From positions 16,748-80,747 of the forward strand of contig OY970175.1 in NCBI GenBank assembly GCA_963707865.1: DNA of 64,000 bases, given 5' to 3'. The translations under genes and the position numbers were made by a program. Each line of letters starts with the position of its first letter. The first letter of the stretch is position 1. The notes beneath the pieces were generated by a model. That model did not search any database, was not told the DNA's origin, and saw nothing but the letters and a program-made list of their open reading frames with translations. This stretch comes from an uncultured bacterium. Its GTDB lineage: Bacteria; Patescibacteriota; Minisyncoccia; UBA6257; 2-01-FULL-56-20. Shown here one piece after another: positions 20,152-28,285 of the stretch.

Positions 20152-20961
20152 CTATTCTTTTTTCTTGAACAAGCTCAATAAAAAGAGCGCGGCGGCCGTG
20201 ACGACGATCGTGGGGCCTTGTTCCAGCGCGTAGTGCGCGGAGAGGTAAAACCCGACGAGCATTGCGGCGATGGAAAGCGCTATGGAGGTTATGAGGAACA
20301 TGCCGAGCGAATGGGTGAACTGGCGCGCGGCGGAGGCGGGAATGATGATGAGGGAACCCACAAGCAATGCGCCGAGGAAGCGCAACGAAACAAGGATAGC
20401 GAGGCCAAAGACGAGCAAAAACCAAAGGTTCACGGTGTTCACGTTGATACCGGCGGAGGCAGCGAGTTCTGGGGAAAAGAGGGCAATGATCAATTTGTTG
20501 CGCAGCACCCAGAGCGCTGCAATGACGATTATACTCACCGCCATCCCGAAGATGAATCCGCCGGCAGAGAGATTTCCAAATCCGCCGAAGAGTGCATCAA
20601 CAAGATCTTCGGTGGAATGAATAAGAAGTGCGCCCAGTGCCACGGAACTTGCAAAGATGACGCCGATCGCAGCCTCGGCGGAAAGTTCGGTGGATTTTTG
20701 AAGATGCCAAATAAGAAGAATACCGATGAGGAGAGTGAGCCCGCCGCCCGCGAGGGGATTGATCTTCCAGACGATGGCGAGGCCCAACCCAGGGATTGCG
20801 ATGTGCGACATTACGTCGCCTGCGAGCACCGTCCGTTTCATCAGTGCGAAGGCACCGACGAGGCCTGCGGCTGCGGCGGCAAAAATAGCGAGCGTGATGG
20901 AATAAATATCAGTGAGGGTCATGGAGATGGTGGAAGTGGTGGAAATATTTGTGCGGTCCAT
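20152..20961 (-). CDS. metal (Zn/Mn) ABC transporter permease, ABC-3 family
   Basis: Eight hydrophobic segments; ZnuB/MntB/TroCD-like; a start at MTLTDIYS (20922) would remove most of the 53-nt overlap with the ATPase gene. Confidence 0.8.
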   Translation of the reverse strand: MDRTNISTTSTISMTLTDIYSITLAIFAAAAAGLVGAFALMKRTVLAGDVMSHIAIPGLGLAIVWKINPLAGGGLTLLIGILLIWHLQKSTELSAEAAIGVIFASSVALGALLIHSTEDLVDALFGGFGNLSAGGFIFGMAVSIIVIAALWVLRNKLIIALFSPELAASAGINVNTVNLWFLLVFGLAILVSLRFLGALLVGSLIIIPASAARQFTHSLGMFLITSIALSIAAMLVGFYLSAHYALEQGPTIVVTAAALFLLSLFKKKE

Positions 20962-21658
20962 AAAGTTTTTCCAATACGTCTTTGGTGAGAGCTTCGTCGG
21001 GTGGGCCGAAGCAGAGCTCAGACGTGTGGAGACAAAGCACTTTCGTAGCGTACTGGTACACGACGTTAAGGTCGTGCGAGACGAGGATGGTTGTCATGTC
21101 GTATTGGTCCTGAAGGCGGTGGACGAGTTCATAAACCTGCTCTTCGCCGGACTCGTCAATGCTCGCAGTCGGTTCGTCAAGCAGCAGCACGCTCGGCTTG
21201 CCCAGCCGCGCTTCGTCGTGCGAAGTGGTGCTCGGCAAGCCAAGGAGTGCGAATGCAATAAGCGCGCGCTGGAACTGTCCGCCCGAAAGGTGCCCCACGG
21301 GCGTTTCAAGTATTTTTTTTGTGAGACCGACGGCATCCGCGACGGCGCTCGCTTCGGCTTTCGCGAGACGGAGCGTCGCCGATTTAGCCGCGAGAAGATT
21401 GTGGAAGTTGATGGGGAGGTGGCGGTCGGCGTCTATTTTTTGCGGCACATAGCCGATCCGCGTGCCGGGGGCCCACGCAACCGTGCCGCGGTAGGGAATC
21501 ATGCCGAGGAGCGCGCGCAAAAGGACGCTCTTACCCGCGCCATTGGGACCGATAACCGCAAGCGCATCCCCCTTGTCAAGTGTAAAATTGATACTCTGCA
21601 ACGCGGTTCTTCCGCCCAATACTACGTTCAGATCGGAAACGGTAAGCGCATCTGCCAT
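20909..21658 (-). CDS. metal ABC transporter ATP-binding protein with His-rich C-terminal tail
   Basis: Walker A GPNGAGKS, signature LSGGQFQRA, Walker B LLLDEP; tail HKYFHHFHHLHDPH. Confidence 0.85.
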   Translation of the reverse strand: MADALTVSDLNVVLGGRTALQSINFTLDKGDALAVIGPNGAGKSVLLRALLGMIPYRGTVAWAPGTRIGYVPQKIDADRHLPINFHNLLAAKSATLRLAKAEASAVADAVGLTKKILETPVGHLSGGQFQRALIAFALLGLPSTTSHDEARLGKPSVLLLDEPTASIDESGEEQVYELVHRLQDQYDMTTILVSHDLNVVYQYATKVLCLHTSELCFGPPDEALTKDVLEKLYGPHKYFHHFHHLHDPH

Positions 21659-21669
21659 TGTGAATATTG

Positions 21670-21732
21670 TAGCGTAGAACCCATCTTAAAAATAGGGCAT
21701 AAGAGCCATGCGGCCTATTTTTAAGATGGGTT
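21670..21732. promoter_or_regulatory. conserved 16-nt motif TAGCGTAGAACCCATC plus 20-bp-arm palindrome (GAACCCATCTTAAAAATAGG-N16-CCTATTTTTAAGATGGGTTC), copy 2
   Basis: Begins 12 nt after the divergent start codon at 21658; between the ABC ATPase gene and the histidine kinase gene. Confidence 0.5.
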
Positions 21733-21780
21733 CCGGCGGCGGATGGGAAAGGGAGGAGACCAGAATGATAGAATGAAGGT

Positions 21781-23571
21781 ATGCAGAAGCCGTCTAAAAG
21801 AAAACTTCGGAATCGGATCTTTCTCGTGATTCTCGTCGGGCTTGTCCCTATCGCGGTTGCGGTGGGGCTTGGTATCTACACCGTGAACAGCTCACACCGC
21901 GAGGATGTGGCACGGCTTGAATCGGCGGTGCTTACAGAGAAGGCGCAGGAAGTAGAGACCTATGTGAACGAAAACATCTTAAGCCACCCCCGGATCGTAT
22001 CGCCCCAAGGGACAAGCATTGCACAATCAACTTCGGCGCAGAAATTTGCCCTCAGCCAAACAATGAATGTGCTCACCTTTCTTAATGTGGAATCTTTTGT
22101 CAATTTGAGCGGAGAAGAATTGGTGCGCCTTGATCGCGCGTATCCCGACGGCTATCCCGCGGATGCCTTGCGCGACATGAGCGCCACGCCGGCGTTTCAG
22201 ATCGCCCGTGCGGGCAACTATTATATCGGTCCCATTTCTTACATTTCTTCCACGCCCTCGGTCACCTTTTCGTCTCCCGTGGAGGATGATGCAAAAAACG
22301 TGATAGGGGTGATCGTGGGCGAGGCGAATCTGGCGGAGCTCCAAGCGATTGTTACGGAAGCGAAGATCGGCACCACCGGGTACCTGTATCTTGTGGATGG
22401 ACAGGGGAACACGATTGGCGGTGGAGGGCCGATGAAGGGGACTACGGGACAAACGGCTACGGTGAATGGGGTTAACCTGTCGACGGTACAGGCGGCACTC
22501 GCTGGGGAAGATCTTCTTACCGCCGACACGCAAGAGACCTATAAAAACATCGTAGGGGAAACGGTGGTCGCTGCGGAAAAATATATTCCGGAATTTGGTT
22601 GGGGACTCGTCGTGGAATGGCCGACAAGCGAGGCGAACGCCGTGATCAATACGCTTTTCTTGCGCAACGCTATCACATTTGCCATTGTGTTGCTCATCGC
22701 GTTCGCCGCGTCGCTCTTCCTCGCCGCATATGTGGTGCGCCCGGTGCGGAAGTTGCAGGAGGGCGTGGCGCGGGTGGCGCAGGGAAAGTTTGACGAGGGG
22801 GTTTACATCGCAACTGGCGACGAATTGGAAGCCCTCGGCGACTCGTTCAATAACATGGTGCAGGGGTTGAAGCAGTTGGAACAGCTGAAAGACGAGTTCG
22901 TCTTTATCGCGGCGCACGAGCTGCGGACCCCCGTGGCTGCGATGAAGGGATATCTTTCTCTTGTTCTTGACGGTACGACGGGCGCCATCACTGATGGGAC
23001 AAGAGCGTACGTGGAGAAGGTAATCGCGTCGGATAACCGTCTTGTCCAACTGGTGAACGACCTTCTTGAGGTCGCCCGCTCAGAGGCGGGACGGCTTACG
23101 ATTAAGGTGTCGCCGATTGACATGGCGCCGCTCGTCTGTGCAGTGCTTGACGAACTCAAAGCGCTCGCCGACGAGAAGTCGGTAAAAATGGTCTACGAAC
23201 CGTCTGTAGATTTGCCGAAGGTAGTGGGCGACGCGGATCACGTGAAGGAAGTTATGGTCAATCTTGTGGGCAATGCGATCAAGTATATGGGTGGCGCGGG
23301 GACGGTGACCATTTTGCACGAAGTGAAAGACGGCGCGCTCCTGACGCACGTCGCAGATACTGGGATCGGCATTGCAAAGGAAGCACAGGAAAAATTGTTT
23401 CAAAAATTCTACCGCGTGCAGACGGAGAAGACGCGCGACATCACGGGCACCGGCCTTGGCCTTTTTATCGTGCGGGAGATTATGGAAAAGATGGGTGGAA
23501 AAATCTTGGTTGAGTCCGAGGAAGGAAAAGGGTCCATGTTCAGCATTAGCCTCCCCCTCGCAAAAACGTAA
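21781..23571 (+). CDS. sensor histidine kinase (TM - extracytoplasmic Cache-like domain - TM - HAMP - HisKA - HATPase_c)
   Basis: H-box FIAAHELRTPVAAMKGY; N, G1 and G2 boxes (NLVGNAIKY, DTGIGI, GTGLGL); no response regulator gene in window. Confidence 0.8.
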   Translation: MQKPSKRKLRNRIFLVILVGLVPIAVAVGLGIYTVNSSHREDVARLESAVLTEKAQEVETYVNENILSHPRIVSPQGTSIAQSTSAQKFALSQTMNVLTFLNVESFVNLSGEELVRLDRAYPDGYPADALRDMSATPAFQIARAGNYYIGPISYISSTPSVTFSSPVEDDAKNVIGVIVGEANLAELQAIVTEAKIGTTGYLYLVDGQGNTIGGGGPMKGTTGQTATVNGVNLSTVQAALAGEDLLTADTQETYKNIVGETVVAAEKYIPEFGWGLVVEWPTSEANAVINTLFLRNAITFAIVLLIAFAASLFLAAYVVRPVRKLQEGVARVAQGKFDEGVYIATGDELEALGDSFNNMVQGLKQLEQLKDEFVFIAAHELRTPVAAMKGYLSLVLDGTTGAITDGTRAYVEKVIASDNRLVQLVNDLLEVARSEAGRLTIKVSPIDMAPLVCAVLDELKALADEKSVKMVYEPSVDLPKVVGDADHVKEVMVNLVGNAIKYMGGAGTVTILHEVKDGALLTHVADTGIGIAKEAQEKLFQKFYRVQTEKTRDITGTGLGLFIVREIMEKMGGKILVESEEGKGSMFSISLPLAKT

Positions 23572-23728: not shown

Positions 23729-25225
23729 ATGAATAGAATAAACAGATTGAAGAAGATTACGGTGATTGGATTGGGGATTCTCTTGATGGGGAGCGCTTTA
23801 GTTCCGGCAATGATCGGTTCCGAAGGGTTCACCGTCGCGCGCGCCGACAGTGTTGCAACAAGTACGGCGAGCACTACCACGAGTTCTAGCGCGAGTACGA
23901 GCGCAAGCGGAAGTGCTGATGCGAGCAGTACCGCGAGTGCGGGAGGCATAGATACGACCGCAAGCACAACCGCGAACGCAAGTTCTAGTACGAGCGCGAG
24001 CGGGGGAAGTGCGAGCGCCAGTGCAAGCGCAGACGCGACGGCAGGGTCGGGCACGAACGAGAGTACCTGTAAGGTGACGACCGGCTCGATCACCATTTGC
24101 AAAGTGATCGAGAACGCAAGCGGTACAATCGTGAACGGTGCGGCATTCCCTGGGCAGGTCTTTACAGTCCCGGGGATAGCCACGGTGCCTTCAACGACCG
24201 CAGGTGCGGCAGGACTGTTGCCGACCTCGGTCTTTACGACGCCGGTTCCCTGGAACGAAGAACTTTTCGGTTCTCGCGCGGACAATGCGAAGTGCCTTAC
24301 GTACGACCATCTTGCCCTCGGCGATTACTACTACGGGCAAGAGCAAATTGCGACCTCAACGTATCAGTGGGCAACCCCGCGCTACAATGACCAAAATACG
24401 GTTACTGCAGCGACGCCGGCGAACACATTCCCATACAGCGGCGAGCTGTTTGACAACGATCCCTCCAATGACAGCCAGCGGAACCAGAACGCTGATGGGG
24501 ACATCACCCTCACGCGCGCACGTCCAAACCGCGAACTCATCGTTCTCAACCAATTCTTGGGGAGCGGTACGACGACGCCTCAGAGCGCAGGCCTCACCAT
24601 TGTGAAGACTGCCGATGTGACCTCTACAGTTCCCGGCGGCACCGTGCACTATATGCTCACGGTGGATGCCTTGGGTCCTGTGACGTCAACGGGAGTGGTC
24701 GCGACGGATACGCTTCCTTCGGAGCTTACGTTTGAGAACGCCACCGCTTCGGTGGGTTCTTACGCCAGCTCCACGGGTACGTGGACCATCGGCGACCTGA
24801 GTCCGAGTTCCACGGCGACGCTTGCAATCCAAGCGACCGTGAACCCGAGCACGCCCACGGGCACGACGATCGTGAATACCGCGATCGTAGGGGAGAATGC
24901 CAGCACGACGAATCCGAATCCGAACACGTCCTCAACCATACCGGTTATTGTGACAAGTACCAGTACTTGCACATCTAACTGCGGTGGCGGCGGAGGTGGC
25001 GGCGGCGGAGGCGTGAGCTCAAGCACCTGCACCATAGTGAGCGACACGAACAACTTGGTGTACGGCAGCGGTCCGGTTGCGATTAATAACCCTTACGTGG
25101 CCTCATGGCTTGATACCACGGGCCTCGCGAATGGCGGGAACGCCGCGCTTGTTGCGACTCCGTACAACACTCGTTGGACGGCGTCAATTCCGGGCGGTAC
25201 TCTGCACATACATATGGCCCCTTGA
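23729..25225 (+). CDS. secreted Ser/Thr-rich surface protein with DUF11 (conserved repeat) domain and (Gly)10 tract; 3' end runs into the IS element
   Basis: Signal peptide, S/T/A low-complexity region, DUF11-like block LTIVKTADVTSTVPGGTVHYMLTV...; stop codon lies inside the IS left terminus. Confidence 0.6.
   Translation: MNRINRLKKITVIGLGILLMGSALVPAMIGSEGFTVARADSVATSTASTTTSSSASTSASGSADASSTASAGGIDTTASTTANASSSTSASGGSASASASADATAGSGTNESTCKVTTGSITICKVIENASGTIVNGAAFPGQVFTVPGIATVPSTTAGAAGLLPTSVFTTPVPWNEELFGSRADNAKCLTYDHLALGDYYYGQEQIATSTYQWATPRYNDQNTVTAATPANTFPYSGELFDNDPSNDSQRNQNADGDITLTRARPNRELIVLNQFLGSGTTTPQSAGLTIVKTADVTSTVPGGTVHYMLTVDALGPVTSTGVVATDTLPSELTFENATASVGSYASSTGTWTIGDLSPSSTATLAIQATVNPSTPTGTTIVNTAIVGENASTTNPNPNTSSTIPVIVTSTSTCTSNCGGGGGGGGGGVSSSTCTIVSDTNNLVYGSGPVAINNPYVASWLDTTGLANGGNAALVATPYNTRWTASIPGGTLHIHMAP
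24587..25012 (+). repeat. ~425-bp direct repeat copy 1 (DUF11-coding block, ~98% identical to copy at 26999)
   Basis: Same encoded peptide QSAGLTIVKTADV...TSTSTCTSNCGGGG in both genes; identical reverse-frame ORFs 24356-24649 and 26685-27062 in the ORF track. Confidence 0.8.
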
Positions 25226-26192
25226 AGTGTAAGCTGGGGAATATGCCACAAACACTCGCAAAAGACGCAGCAGAGGAACGGATGCGGTGGATCACCCCGC
25301 ATCTTGAGAAAGAGATGAGTATCAAGGACATTGCTGCCCACGCGCCGTTTTCATATCGCACGCTCAAGCGGTGGGTGGCGGCATATCGCAGGGGCGGGAT
25401 CGATGCGCTCGTGTCGCACTCGCGCAGGCCGCACACGCATCCGAAACAATTCTCACAGACCATCGTGAATCGGATCAGATCGTTGCGAACAGCAACGGAT
25501 CTGGGTCCTGATGTCCTCATGTATCTCCTCGCCCGCGAGGGCCTGAAGCTCTCCGTGCGGGGTATTGCCAAAGTCCTGAAACGTGAGGGGCTCTCAAGAA
25601 CCAAAAAACGGTTGGTGCCCAAAGCAAAGTGGAAACCGACCGCCACGTTTCCCGGAGAGATCATCGAGATTGATGTCGTTTATGTGCGGAGATTCAAGGG
25701 GCAATGGCTCTACCAGTTCACCGCGATTGATTGCTGCACGCGGTGGCGGCATCTCTGGGTGACCCAAGAACAATCCACGCGGACCGCGATCTTGTTTCTC
25801 GAGAAAGTCATTGCTACGGCACCCTTCCGCATCCGTGCGGTGAAGACCGATAACGGATCAATCTTCACGAACCGGTACGTGGGATATCCGAAGTCAGCAG
25901 ATCCCCTGAAGCCGCGGTTGCATCCTTTTGATGTTACTTGTGAAAAACAAAAAATGACGCACTATCTCATCGCCCCGGGGCATCCTGCGCAGAACGGCAA
26001 GGTGGAGCGGTCGCATCGCAATGACCGCGAACGGTTCTGGAACAAGATATCATTCCGCACGGTGGCCGAAGCGAAACAAAAACAGGCCGCGTACTGCGCC
26101 TGGTACAACACGGTCTGTCCTCATCTTGCCCTTGCGGGAAAGACGCCGGTTGAATATCTTCAAGCTATCGAGGGGACAAATGTGCGGACATG
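25200..26192 (+). mobile_element. IS481-family insertion sequence (~1 kb)
   Basis: Single DDE transposase ORF; imperfect terminal inverted repeats (left CTGCACATACATATGGCCCCTT; right reverse complement TCCGCACATTTGTCCCCTCG); boundaries approximate. Confidence 0.55.
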
Positions 26193-26193
26193 A
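25243..26193 (+). CDS. IS481-family DDE transposase
   Basis: N-terminal HTH, rve integrase core with AIDCCTRW / VKTDNGSIFT / HPAQNGKVERSHR (D-D-E) motifs; ATG 25243 preferred over the TTG at 25174. Confidence 0.8.
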   Translation: MPQTLAKDAAEERMRWITPHLEKEMSIKDIAAHAPFSYRTLKRWVAAYRRGGIDALVSHSRRPHTHPKQFSQTIVNRIRSLRTATDLGPDVLMYLLAREGLKLSVRGIAKVLKREGLSRTKKRLVPKAKWKPTATFPGEIIEIDVVYVRRFKGQWLYQFTAIDCCTRWRHLWVTQEQSTRTAILFLEKVIATAPFRIRAVKTDNGSIFTNRYVGYPKSADPLKPRLHPFDVTCEKQKMTHYLIAPGHPAQNGKVERSHRNDRERFWNKISFRTVAEAKQKQAAYCAWYNTVCPHLALAGKTPVEYLQAIEGTNVRT

Positions 26194-28130
26194 AACAGGG
26201 CGCGAGCTGGATCTGGGCGACACCGACGATTGATAACCCGCTCGTGAACGAGGCATACACGTTCAAGAAAACCTTCACGGTTTCGGGAACTCCGGCTTCG
26301 GCGACGTTGGACATCAACGCTGACAACTCCTACGGCGTCGTACTGAATGGCGCCACGGTTGCTTCAAACTCAAACGAGCTTAACTACTTCATTCAGAATG
26401 AGGGACAGTTCAATGTTGCTTCCGCGTTGCACAACGGTACGAACACCATTGCGGTGACGGTTGCGAATTTCGGCATGCCGAGTAGCACGCCGCAATCCAA
26501 CCCGGCTGGCCTGCTTTATAAGCTCGCCATCCAGGGTGCGACCTGTACGACTCCCACTTCTACCCCGACCTCCACGATCCCGTCCGCGGACATCGCCATT
26601 GCGAAGACCGCGGATGTAACGTCAACGGTTGCGGGTGGCACGGTGAACTATACACTTACCGTAACCGGTCTTGGCCCCACAACCTCAACGATTGTGGTTG
26701 CCAATGATCGATTGCCTGCCGGCGTGAGTTTGATCTCTGCGACATCTTCGCAGGGGACTTACAACATGACGACGGGTGATTGGAACATCAACACGGTGGC
26801 GCCGAACGCGACGGCTACCCTGATTATCGCAGCCATGGTTGATCCGCGTGAAGCGGGCGAGAGCATTACGAACACCGCGACCGTTTCCGAGTTGAGTTCG
26901 CTCATTGATCCGAATCCGGCGAACAATTCTTCCTCGGTTACGATCATGGTCCAGCCCACGAGCACGTGCACTTCCAACTGTGGCGGAGAAATTCCTCAAG
27001 CAGGCCTCACCATTGTGAAGACTGCCGATGTGACCTCTACAGTTCCCGGCGGCACCGTGCACTATATGCTCACGGTGGATGCCTTGGGTCCTGTGACGTC
27101 AACGGGAGTGGTCGCGACGGATACGCTTCCTTCGGAGCTTACGTTTGAGAACGCCACCGCTTCGGTGGGTTCTTACGCCAGCTCCACGGGTACGTGGACC
27201 ATCGGTGACCTGAGTCCGAGTTCCACGGCGACGCTTGCAATCCAAGCGACTGTGAACCCGAGCACGCCCACGGGCACGACGATCCTCAATACGGCAATCG
27301 TAGGGGAGAATGCCAGCACGACGAATCCGAATCCGAACACGTCCTCAACCATACCGGTTATTGTGACAAGTACCAGTACTTGCACATCTGACTGCGGTGG
27401 TGGCGGAGGTGGCGGTGGCGGAGGCGGCGGAGGCGGCGGAGGTGGAGGTGGTATCTCGGTGTCCGTTGGCGGCGGTGGCACGGCGTATTCCATAGCCATC
27501 AATAATGGCGCGACGTCCACGCCGACCACGAATGCGACACTTTCGCTCTACGGAACGGGAGCCTACGCGATGGCGATCGCGAACGAGCCCTTCCCGAGTT
27601 CCATTGCGACGTCAACCGCGAGTTCAACTGTGGGCGACACCGGATGGATTCCGTACACGACTTCTATGCCGTGGACACTTACACCCGGCGCGGGATTGAA
27701 AACCGTTTACGTGCGATACCGTGACGTGAACGGCAACATTCTTGCGACCGTGAACGCTTCCATTGAACTCCTGGGCGGGCAGGTGCTTGGCGCTTCCGCA
27801 AGCTGCGGCACCTATCTGAACGATTACATCCGCCTCGGATGGAACAACAATCCCAATGAGGTGGCGAAGCTCCAGACATTCCTGAACAAAAATCTGGGAC
27901 TGAATCTGCCGATCACGGGCGTCTATGACCAAAAGGGTTTCAACGCCGTGGAGCAATTCCAGCTCAAGTACAACGATCAAGTGCTTGCGCCATGGGTGCC
28001 CCTCGGTTTGCTGAACAAGATGACGCCGACCGGTTTCGTTTATCAGACGACGAAATGGGAGATTAATATGCTGCAGTGCGCAGCGCTCAATCTTCCGCTC
28101 CCAGCTTTACAGGTCTATGGGACACCGTAA
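26190..28130 (+). CDS. surface protein: N-terminal beta-sandwich-like domain, two DUF11 blocks, (Gly)20 tract, C-terminal peptidoglycan-binding-like domain; no signal peptide, start codon formed at the IS right end
   Basis: DUF11 blocks at aa ~130-260 and 265-395; C-terminal IRLGWNNNPNEVAKLQTFLNKNLGL...GFNAVEQFQ resembles PG_binding_1. Confidence 0.6.
   Translation: MKQGASWIWATPTIDNPLVNEAYTFKKTFTVSGTPASATLDINADNSYGVVLNGATVASNSNELNYFIQNEGQFNVASALHNGTNTIAVTVANFGMPSSTPQSNPAGLLYKLAIQGATCTTPTSTPTSTIPSADIAIAKTADVTSTVAGGTVNYTLTVTGLGPTTSTIVVANDRLPAGVSLISATSSQGTYNMTTGDWNINTVAPNATATLIIAAMVDPREAGESITNTATVSELSSLIDPNPANNSSSVTIMVQPTSTCTSNCGGEIPQAGLTIVKTADVTSTVPGGTVHYMLTVDALGPVTSTGVVATDTLPSELTFENATASVGSYASSTGTWTIGDLSPSSTATLAIQATVNPSTPTGTTILNTAIVGENASTTNPNPNTSSTIPVIVTSTSTCTSDCGGGGGGGGGGGGGGGGGGGISVSVGGGGTAYSIAINNGATSTPTTNATLSLYGTGAYAMAIANEPFPSSIATSTASSTVGDTGWIPYTTSMPWTLTPGAGLKTVYVRYRDVNGNILATVNASIELLGGQVLGASASCGTYLNDYIRLGWNNNPNEVAKLQTFLNKNLGLNLPITGVYDQKGFNAVEQFQLKYNDQVLAPWVPLGLLNKMTPTGFVYQTTKWEINMLQCAALNLPLPALQVYGTP
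26999..27424 (+). repeat. ~425-bp direct repeat copy 2, followed by expanded (GGN)20 tract
   Basis: See copy 1; Gly tract at ~27395-27455 is twice the length of the one at ~24985-25015. Confidence 0.8.
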
Positions 28131-28149
28131 TCACGCGAATGCCCAAAAA

Positions 28150-28192
28150 CAGTCCAGCACCATCCTAAAAAGTGGTGCTGGATTGTTTTTTG
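28150..28192 (+). terminator. rho-independent terminator (CCAGCACCA-loop-TGGTGCTGG + T6)
   Basis: GC-rich hairpin followed by TTTTTT, 20 nt after the surface-protein stop. Confidence 0.6.
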
Positions 28193-28222
28193 GACAGCTT
28201 TGTGATATAATATGACCAATGC

Positions 28223-28285
28223 TGCCTGTCTGCGCCCCTCCGGCCTCCTTTGAAGCCAGAGTCGGCCGGAGGGGCGCAGACAGGC
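28223..28285 (+). promoter_or_regulatory. 22-bp perfect inverted repeat (GCCTGTCTGCGCCCCTCCGGCC ... GGCCGGAGGGGCGCAGACAGGC) in the 5' UTR of the CAP-domain gene
   Basis: Lies between a TATAAT box (28206-28211) and the ATG at 28296; ends 10 nt before the start codon. Confidence 0.6.

Follow-up and report, generated by a model that had tools for sequence, protein, structure and literature searches.

Insertion sequences (ISs) of the IS481 family have TGT..ACA ends and generate target-site duplications of 2–15 bp, mostly of 6 bp (PMC10045372), and the IS1202 family, which has been placed inside the IS481 tree (PMC10045372), targets dif/pdif sites, at a distance of 5 bp from their XerC side (PMC10132070). 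Here we describe an IS481-family element in a 64,000-nt stretch of DNA (hereafter, the window) from contig OY970175.1 of an uncultured Patescibacteriota bacterium, where it lies within coding sequence (positions 23729–28130) for a surface protein with DUF11 modules (PF01345, 'B_ant_repeat'). The explanation that we favor, and consider very probable, is that a single gene for a secreted, wall-associated multi-domain protein was cut by this 1,002-bp element. The likeness of the element to family members such as IS481 and IS1002 of Bordetella consists in a length of ~1 kb and a single open reading frame (ORF) for an rve-type DDE transposase with helix-turn-helix (HTH) and leucine-zipper regions, and extends to imperfect inverted repeats, a right end of ...ACA, and a duplication within the range of 2–15 bp (PMC10045372). 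It differs from the usual members in its left end, which is GGT instead of TGT, and in its 4-bp duplication, as opposed to mostly 6 bp (PMC10045372). Its clade differs further in being found mainly in Patescibacteria and in an oriented preference for sites 8 bp from TTGAC. The interrupted gene, for its part, resembles known multi-repeat DUF11 surface proteins with a PG_binding_1 anchor in having three DUF11 modules, but differs from them by the interruption, by a galactose-binding-like beta-sandwich between DUF11 modules, and by poly-Gly linkers.

The mechanical list of ORFs for 23729–28130 on the + strand contains 23729–25225 (498 aa), 25174–26193 (the frame of the transposase), and 26190–28130 (646 aa), and the preliminary description of this DNA had placed the IS between two genes. 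However, computed excision of 25197–26202 (1,006 bp) yielded a single open ORF of 1,131 aa with zero internal stops, which locates the insertion point inside one 1,131-codon gene (23729–28130, +), between codons 489 and 490. A search with the rebuilt 178-aa region around the junction against 5.8 billion proteins revealed 22 homologues, most of them spanning 74–97% of the query. The motif WTASIPGA[ST]W[IV]W was unbroken in the 11 homologues that were aligned (among P0001 and P0004–P0019), and the position of the IS corresponds to the boundary between its G and A. Residues W55, T56, A57, S58, I59, P60, A62, W64, and W66 were invariant in this alignment, and the junction motif (WTASIPG|ASWIW in the window) had only two variable positions. 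In addition, the DUF11 domain of P0002 (72% identical) continues directly through RWTASIPGASWIW, and the domain order of this protein matches that of the rebuilt gene. Since the frame is restored, the motif is continuous in homologues, and the domain order of P0002 is equal, the two ORFs can be regarded as halves of one gene; on this comparative sequence evidence, 23729–28130 is one gene, not two.

Both ends at the break carry sequence from the IS. The upstream protein ends in ...NTRWTASIPG, followed by nine IS-encoded codons (GTLHIHMAP) and a stop codon within the IS at 25223–25225 (+), which terminates the truncated ORF. The downstream protein begins with MKQG, from a start supplied by the IS, and continues with ASWIWATP...; its ATG (26190–26192) is contained in the final 8 bp of the element, where it overlaps the stop codon of the transposase (ATGA). 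The preliminary description was right that an adhesin-like gene had been disrupted, that the upstream ORF runs into the IS, and that the downstream ATG is formed at the right end of the IS; its placement of the element between two genes did not hold. Public protein collections list the 498-aa product as a gene call of its own; they do not list the 646-aa product that starts at the IS-supplied ATG. An uninterrupted allele would read ...TCAATTCCGGGC joined directly to GCGAGCTGG. All homologues of the surface protein for which a source was named came from Parcubacteria- or Patescibacteria-group bacteria. For annotation, this means that the two 'genes' should be merged into one IS-interrupted gene, and that exact ends can be assigned to the IS.

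The element occupies 25196–26197 (+; 1,002 bp) with the ends GGTACTCT...ATGAAACA, as determined from the ends of its relatives and from frame restoration, and is flanked by a target-site duplication, GGGC, at 25192–25195 on the left and at 26198–26201 on the right. Sequence inspection and comparison with relatives located an imperfect left terminal inverted repeat of about 26 bp at 25196–25221 (+) and its right counterpart at 26172–26197 (−), which includes the stop codon of the transposase and the outward-facing ATG. The two repeats match at 15 of 26 positions, best over the inner 12 bp. The right end, ...AAACA, fits the TGT...ACA rule of the family; the left end, GGTAC..., does not start with TGT. 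When the window was searched simply for the best-matching inverted repeat, a spurious pair resulted, and the ends were set by comparison with relatives. Related elements were 995–1,030 bp long, with the consensus ends GGTAATGT...[CT]TAAAACA, and 19 of 47 relatives had an exact 4-bp duplication at these consensus ends, compared with ~0.2 expected. Outside the source genome, the closest relative (P0024, locus L081; 71% aa identity) has the ends GGTACTCTGCACATACAT... and ...ATGAAACA, identical to those in the window and at exactly the boundaries demanded by frame restoration. Note that the G at 25196 could formally be assigned to the duplication (GGGCG); the 4-bp duplication was preferred because the start of the relatives with GG is conserved.

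The transposase gene (25243–26193, +) encodes 316 aa with an N-terminal HTH, a leucine-zipper region, and an rve core carrying D144, D203, and E255, as assigned with Pfam and NF033577. Its start is the ATG at 25243, and an identical 316-aa protein (P0023) is present in public collections; its stop codon, TGA at 26191–26193, lies within the right end of the IS. Pfam matches included rve, rve_3, HTH_28/32, and LZ_Tnp_IS481 (26.1 bits vs a cut-off of 22.2), and the IS481 equivalog profile of NCBIfam, NF033577, was matched with 233.7 bits (cut-off, 224) over positions 2–283 of its 284. D144, D203, and E255 were invariant in 19 aligned sequences, namely the transposase of the window and 18 relatives, and the transposase thus looks intact, in line with what the preliminary description had proposed for an IS481-family IS with intact DDE residues. 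Membership in the family presupposes a size of about 0.95–1.3 kb and a single ORF, and the element in the window has 1,002 bp and one ORF of 316 aa; by these features taken together, it is a new member of the known IS481 family. Its GC content is 0.55, compared with 0.57–0.59 in the gene.

Searching the 64-kb window revealed no second copy of the IS; outside the window, the 898,885-bp contig on which this transposase and neighboring proteins are recorded carries a second copy of the transposase (P0143, 316 aa) that is 88% identical. A scan of 185,579 species genomes for the transposase detected 80 loci, nearly all in metagenome-assembled genomes of Patescibacteria, with a best aa identity of 54%, and the nearest transposase sequences were metagenomic proteins.

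Comparison of the flanks of the related elements revealed conservation beyond the duplication on the left side only. At positions −13 to −9 of the left flank, the counts among 43 relatives were 29 for G, 36 for T, 33 for C, 39 for A, and 40 for A, and a TATAGCA-like block was present ~17 nt farther out; the right flank showed no conservation. Read on the opposite strand, the left flank consists of TTGAC(A), 16–18 nt, and TAnnnT, that is, a sigma-70-type promoter facing away from the IS, such that 8 bp separate the left end of the IS in relatives from the −35 hexamer downstream of it. TTGAC occurred at this exact offset in 31 of 50 distinct insertion sites, compared with 0.06 expected from the background of the loci themselves, and 24 of these 31 sites also had a −10–like hexamer. 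The six distinct sites of the closest clade (window, L081, L083, L090, L091, and L092) all read GTCAA[GT], 7 nt, and then GGTA, and four of the six showed clean 4-bp duplications (GGGC, TGAT, GTAT, and AAAA). The corresponding GTCAA in the window (25183–25187, +; TTGAC on the minus strand), identified from the position counts in relatives, is likewise 8 bp from the left end of the IS. Relatives are located mostly outside genes, and the ORFs that follow the motif on the promoter strand differ from locus to locus. The GTCAA of the window, by contrast with the motif at promoters, falls in the Ala-Ser-Ile codons of the conserved protein motif and has no −10 element after it.

Two other accounts of this pattern were considered and rejected. 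tRNA genes as a common target were discarded, since 23 of 30 scanned loci had no tRNA gene and none of those found adjoins the IS. The conserved promoter could also have been a part of the IS itself; however, it is situated outside the duplication, its spacer varies from one locus to the next, and the corresponding positions in the window belong to conserved coding sequence, all of which means that the promoter cannot belong to the element. Because survivorship alone cannot yield a fixed 8-bp spacing together with a single orientation, we infer that the target choice of this clade is sequence-directed, and the reader of the sequence may be the transposase or a promoter-bound protein. Our tentative proposal, to which we give somewhat less than an even chance, is that a previously undescribed, mainly Patescibacteria clade of IS481-family elements inserts, by means of an integrase-type transposase, in a single orientation and at exactly 8 bp upstream of sigma-70-type −35 hexamers (TTGAC), facing away from the promoter, as a 'safe-site' strategy for gene-dense genomes of ~1 Mb, and that the copy in the window would represent an off-target insertion at a TTGAC in coding sequence.

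A literature search revealed no description of a preference for TTGAC or the −35 box in IS481 elements. The nearest precedent for such an offset rule is the IS1202 family, which, like the present clade, inserts in one orientation and at a constant, short spacing from a particular site on the DNA that is bound by protein; it differs in its targets (dif sites vs a −35–like TTGAC), its larger size (about 1.5 kb), and its other duplication lengths. Among eukaryotic elements, Ty3, Ty1, and Tf1, whose integrases belong to the rve/retroviral integrase superfamily, insert at a fixed position upstream of transcription start regions and spare coding sequence. These elements are tethered by transcription factors, whereas what is seen in the clade described here is a DNA motif only. 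If true, the target rule would be a bacterial case of integrase-family elements homing to a fixed promoter-side position, would explain how ISs persist in very compact genomes, and would supply many promoters of uncultivated Patescibacteria that are marked independently and are probably real. Disruption of a gene by an IS is an ordinary, routine event in a small genome of the Patescibacteria type, and the promoter-adjacent target preference of the clade is the sole element of wider interest at this locus.

In the proposed course of events, the IS would have inserted between codons 489 and 490 with duplication of GGGC, at a site that was probably chosen via a chance TTGAC in the coding sequence, a −35–like pentamer 8 bp away, which is the offset that the clade usually keeps beside real promoters. 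The exported N-terminal fragment would then end after nine IS-encoded residues, and the wall anchor, two of the three DUF11 modules, and the larger part of the beta-sandwich would be missing from it. The C-terminal fragment, including the wall anchor, would be left without a signal peptide and would be translatable only from the ATG at the end of the IS, coupled to the stop/start overlap with the transposase gene. A scan for consensus promoters found no outward promoter on the + strand in the IS and nothing promoter-like for the C-terminal fragment. As a consequence, the function of the full-length protein was likely lost. A recent insertion is suggested by the intact frames of the two halves, which extend over 489 and 642 codons, and by the perfect duplication.

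The original protein would have comprised, from N to C terminus, a signal peptide, a Ser/Thr-rich stalk, an unassigned domain, DUF11 module a, a Gly10 linker, a galactose-binding-like beta-sandwich, DUF11 modules b and c, a Gly19 linker, a further unassigned domain, and a peptidoglycan-binding C terminus. Its 5′ part (23729–25195, +; codons 1–489) was delimited from the ORF, the reconstruction, and a Pfam DUF11 match at aa 289–402. It contains a signal-peptide–like N terminus, a stretch rich in Ser, Thr, and Ala, the first unassigned domain, module a, a Cys-rich linker, Gly10, and finally the initial ~60 residues of the beta-sandwich domain. The signal peptide, MNRINRLKKITVIGLGILLMGSALVPAMIG...ARA|DS, was read straight off the sequence. 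The 3′ part (26202–28130, +; codons 490–1131 and the stop), delimited from the ORF, the reconstruction, and domain matches, contains the remaining beta-sandwich, modules b and c, Gly19, the second unassigned domain, and a PG_binding_1–like C terminus.

The domain search placed DUF11 domains on both sides of the IS, as anticipated in the preliminary description: one upstream (79.4 bits) and two downstream (171.7 bits over two stretches; cut-off, 24.6). TIGR01451 scored 39.8 and 64.7 bits on the two parts of the gene. Module b, located with Pfam at 26589–26945 (+), is at the protein level only ~54% identical to modules a and c. At the C terminus, where the preliminary description had placed a peptidoglycan-binding–like domain, the segment in the window (27855–27974, +) scored 22.8–22.9 bits with PG_binding_1 (PF01471), just below the Pfam cut-off of 23, and its best match among PDB sequences, 5tv7, had an E value of only 0.4. 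However, the C-terminal 216 aa had 23 homologues, and 16 of the 18 that were aligned matched PG_binding_1 (best E value, 1.4e-8). The predicted wall-binding end is thus real at the level of the family, even though the single sequence falls short of the cut-off. DUF11 was also carried by three of these 18 homologues, and the combination of DUF11 with this C terminus occurs in the Parcubacteria proteins P0147 and P0161 as well.

The model of the rebuilt junction domain was of only moderate quality, with a mean predicted local distance difference test (pLDDT) score of 64. Residues 70–178 formed beta strands, with scores of 66–92 in 10-residue blocks. A Foldseek comparison of this confident part with the PDB gave an E value of 4e-5 with 3w5n, 6d8k, and 6gsz, at TM-scores of just 0.4–0.5; the matches correspond to the N-terminal beta-sandwich of alpha-L-rhamnosidases and GH2 glycosidases. 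Pfam matches of the junction domain were weak and below the cut-off, and pointed to the same galactose-binding-like beta-sandwich fold.

Comparison of the gene with itself by BLAST revealed one repeat pair, an ungapped alignment of 427 bp with 9 mismatches (97.9% identity). Copy 1 (24587–25013, +) covers DUF11 module a, the TSTCTSNCGG linker, and the start of the Gly tract; copy 2 (27000–27426, +) covers module c, the linker, and the start of the second Gly tract. Both copies are in codon phase 0, and no third copy was found in the window. The preliminary description had reported repeats of ~425 bp and ~98% identity that bracket the IS. Such repeats are real, although its coordinates were off by 1–2 bp, and they do stand on both sides of the IS; however, they do not abut it (copy 1 ends 182 bp before and copy 2 starts 802 bp after the element), coincide with DUF11 modules of the gene itself, and are not linked to the IS. 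Six of the mismatches are synonymous third-position changes, and the other three, in two codons, change V to L and N to D. The copies are 100% identical over the first 206 bp (24587–24792 and 27000–27205), and all nine mismatches are in the last 221 bp (24793–25013 and 27206–27426), a distribution with a P of about 0.003 under even spread in a post-hoc test. Such a pattern would be consistent with, and hints at, a recent conversion event between the copies. The repeats would accordingly represent an intragenic duplication or a gene-conversion pair of DUF11 modules, older than and independent of the IS.

Given that the repeats are direct and in the same codon phase, a crossover between them would lead to an in-frame deletion. 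The predicted loss of 2,413 bp would include module b, the sandwich, and the IS; the remaining frame would be open over 662 aa, and its product would retain the signal peptide and the anchor. Repeat-mediated deletion, one of the changes that had been suggested, is thus possible and would be irreversible, whereas inversion, the other, is not expected from direct repeats.

The tract that follows copy 1 encodes 10 Gly residues in mixed GGT/GGC/GGA codons (24983–25012, +), as described before; the tract that follows copy 2, previously counted as 20, encodes 19 in mixed GGN codons with 9- and 15-nt sub-repeats (27396–27452, +). The tracts thus differ by 27 nt (9 codons). They have sub-periods of 9, 12, and 15 nt, and their longest pure run is about 9 nt. 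The earlier suggestion of phase variation through these tracts could not be maintained. In a contingency locus, a change in length shifts the frame or alters a promoter; here the length of the repeat unit is divisible by three, and the tracts mix several Gly codons, so that only in-frame changes of length are to be expected, without on/off switching. Variation in the size of the tracts is plausible, although we judge it rather unlikely.

Several observations weigh against the favored explanation, in which an IS cut a single gene. Metagenome contigs contained zero exact matches to the 31-nt sequence of the empty site, and no uninterrupted allele was found in this way. The best homologue spanning the break was only 53% identical; P0002 (72%) and P0003 (68%) are closer, yet cover only about half of the junction query. 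In the model of the junction domain, residues 9–52, upstream of the break, had pLDDT scores below 50, and it is therefore chiefly the sequence alignment that speaks for continuity of the fold. A clean 4-bp duplication is missing in L081 and L083, and guidance by TTGAC is, for the insertion in the window, proposed from one event here plus the pattern in relatives. Furthermore, both fragments of the gene may still be made and useful, and the insertion may be present in only part of the population. Two separate DUF11 surface-protein genes with the IS in the gap, perhaps re-assorting them, would fit the ORFs of 498 and 646 aa in the mechanical list and the public record of the 498-aa product as a called gene; nevertheless, this arrangement is very improbable, as removal of the IS fuses both ORFs in frame, the junction lies inside a motif that is unbroken in 11 homologues and within the same domain order as in P0002, and both the end of the upstream ORF and the downstream ATG are IS sequence. 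We gave equally little credence to an assembly artefact, in which the assembly would have placed a multi-copy IS erroneously within a gene that is in fact intact. Relatives of the IS do often assemble as stand-alone contigs of ~1 kb, and the same genome contains the second, 88% identical copy; however, the perfect 4-bp duplication, the exact restoration of the frame, and the target motif at the correct offset are marks of real transposition, and the second copy is too divergent (88% aa identity) for collapse. A scan of metagenome contigs with a 24-mer from the left end of the IS found no other copies of the element.

The remaining alternatives assign a function in surface variation to the repeats or the Gly tracts. 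Precise excision of the IS or recombination between the 427-bp repeats might act as a reversible switch that toggles the surface protein or shortens it to 662 aa, and the same-phase repeats, the open frame with signal peptide and peptidoglycan-binding end left by a crossover, and the 206-bp identical stretch with clustered mismatches, compatible with recent gene conversion, are in its favor. A deletion is irreversible, though, and hence no switch; exact-sequence scans of metagenome contigs with the empty-site 31-mer and the 24-mer of the left IS end revealed no variant structure in public data; nothing ties the IS to the repeats; and the location of its relatives mostly outside genes makes the insertion in the window look accidental. 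We therefore regard a switch as unlikely. Even less probable, to the point of being nearly negligible, is that the Gly tracts are slippage-prone contingency repeats giving phase variation. The tracts after near-identical repeats differ by 27 nt and the longer one has 9- and 15-nt sub-repeats, which argues that tract length changed at least once by slippage or unequal exchange; against phase variation, a unit that is a multiple of 3 with mixed codons produces no frameshift, and Gly-rich linkers are common among the homologues. The interruption of a single gene by the IS remained the explanation best matched to the locus.

Other features of the related elements were recorded in the course of the comparison. 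Homologues of the transposase occur on roughly 1,400 contigs. Many public contigs with relatives of the transposase (P0025–P0142) are ~1.0 kb long and consist of the IS alone, as is usual where multi-copy repeats fragment short-read assemblies; this suggests that, in many samples, the clade is abundant and present in multiple copies. Copies of the P0060 transposase share a common left flank but have two right flanks (L084 and L089 vs L086), which suggests that this IS has undergone rearrangement or recombination in different samples. The final 8 bp in the closest clade (window, L081, L090, L091, and L092) are ATGAAACA or ATGATTCA, in which the stop codon TGA overlaps an outward ATG, whereas more distant relatives end in CTAAAACA, without ATG. 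By chance, this ATG shares the frame of the interrupted gene in the window.

Sequence features adjacent to the gene included two strong hairpins just after its stop codon. The first (28142–28193) has 21-nt arms with 90% complementarity and is followed by a T run, and the second (28224–28285) has 29-nt arms with 90% complementarity; both are probably transcription terminators. On the other side of the gene, a perfect 20-nt inverted repeat with a 17-nt loop (21677–21733) separates a divergent pair, an ABC-ATPase–like gene (20909–21658, −) and a histidine-kinase–like gene (21781–23571), and may be an operator or a bidirectional terminator.

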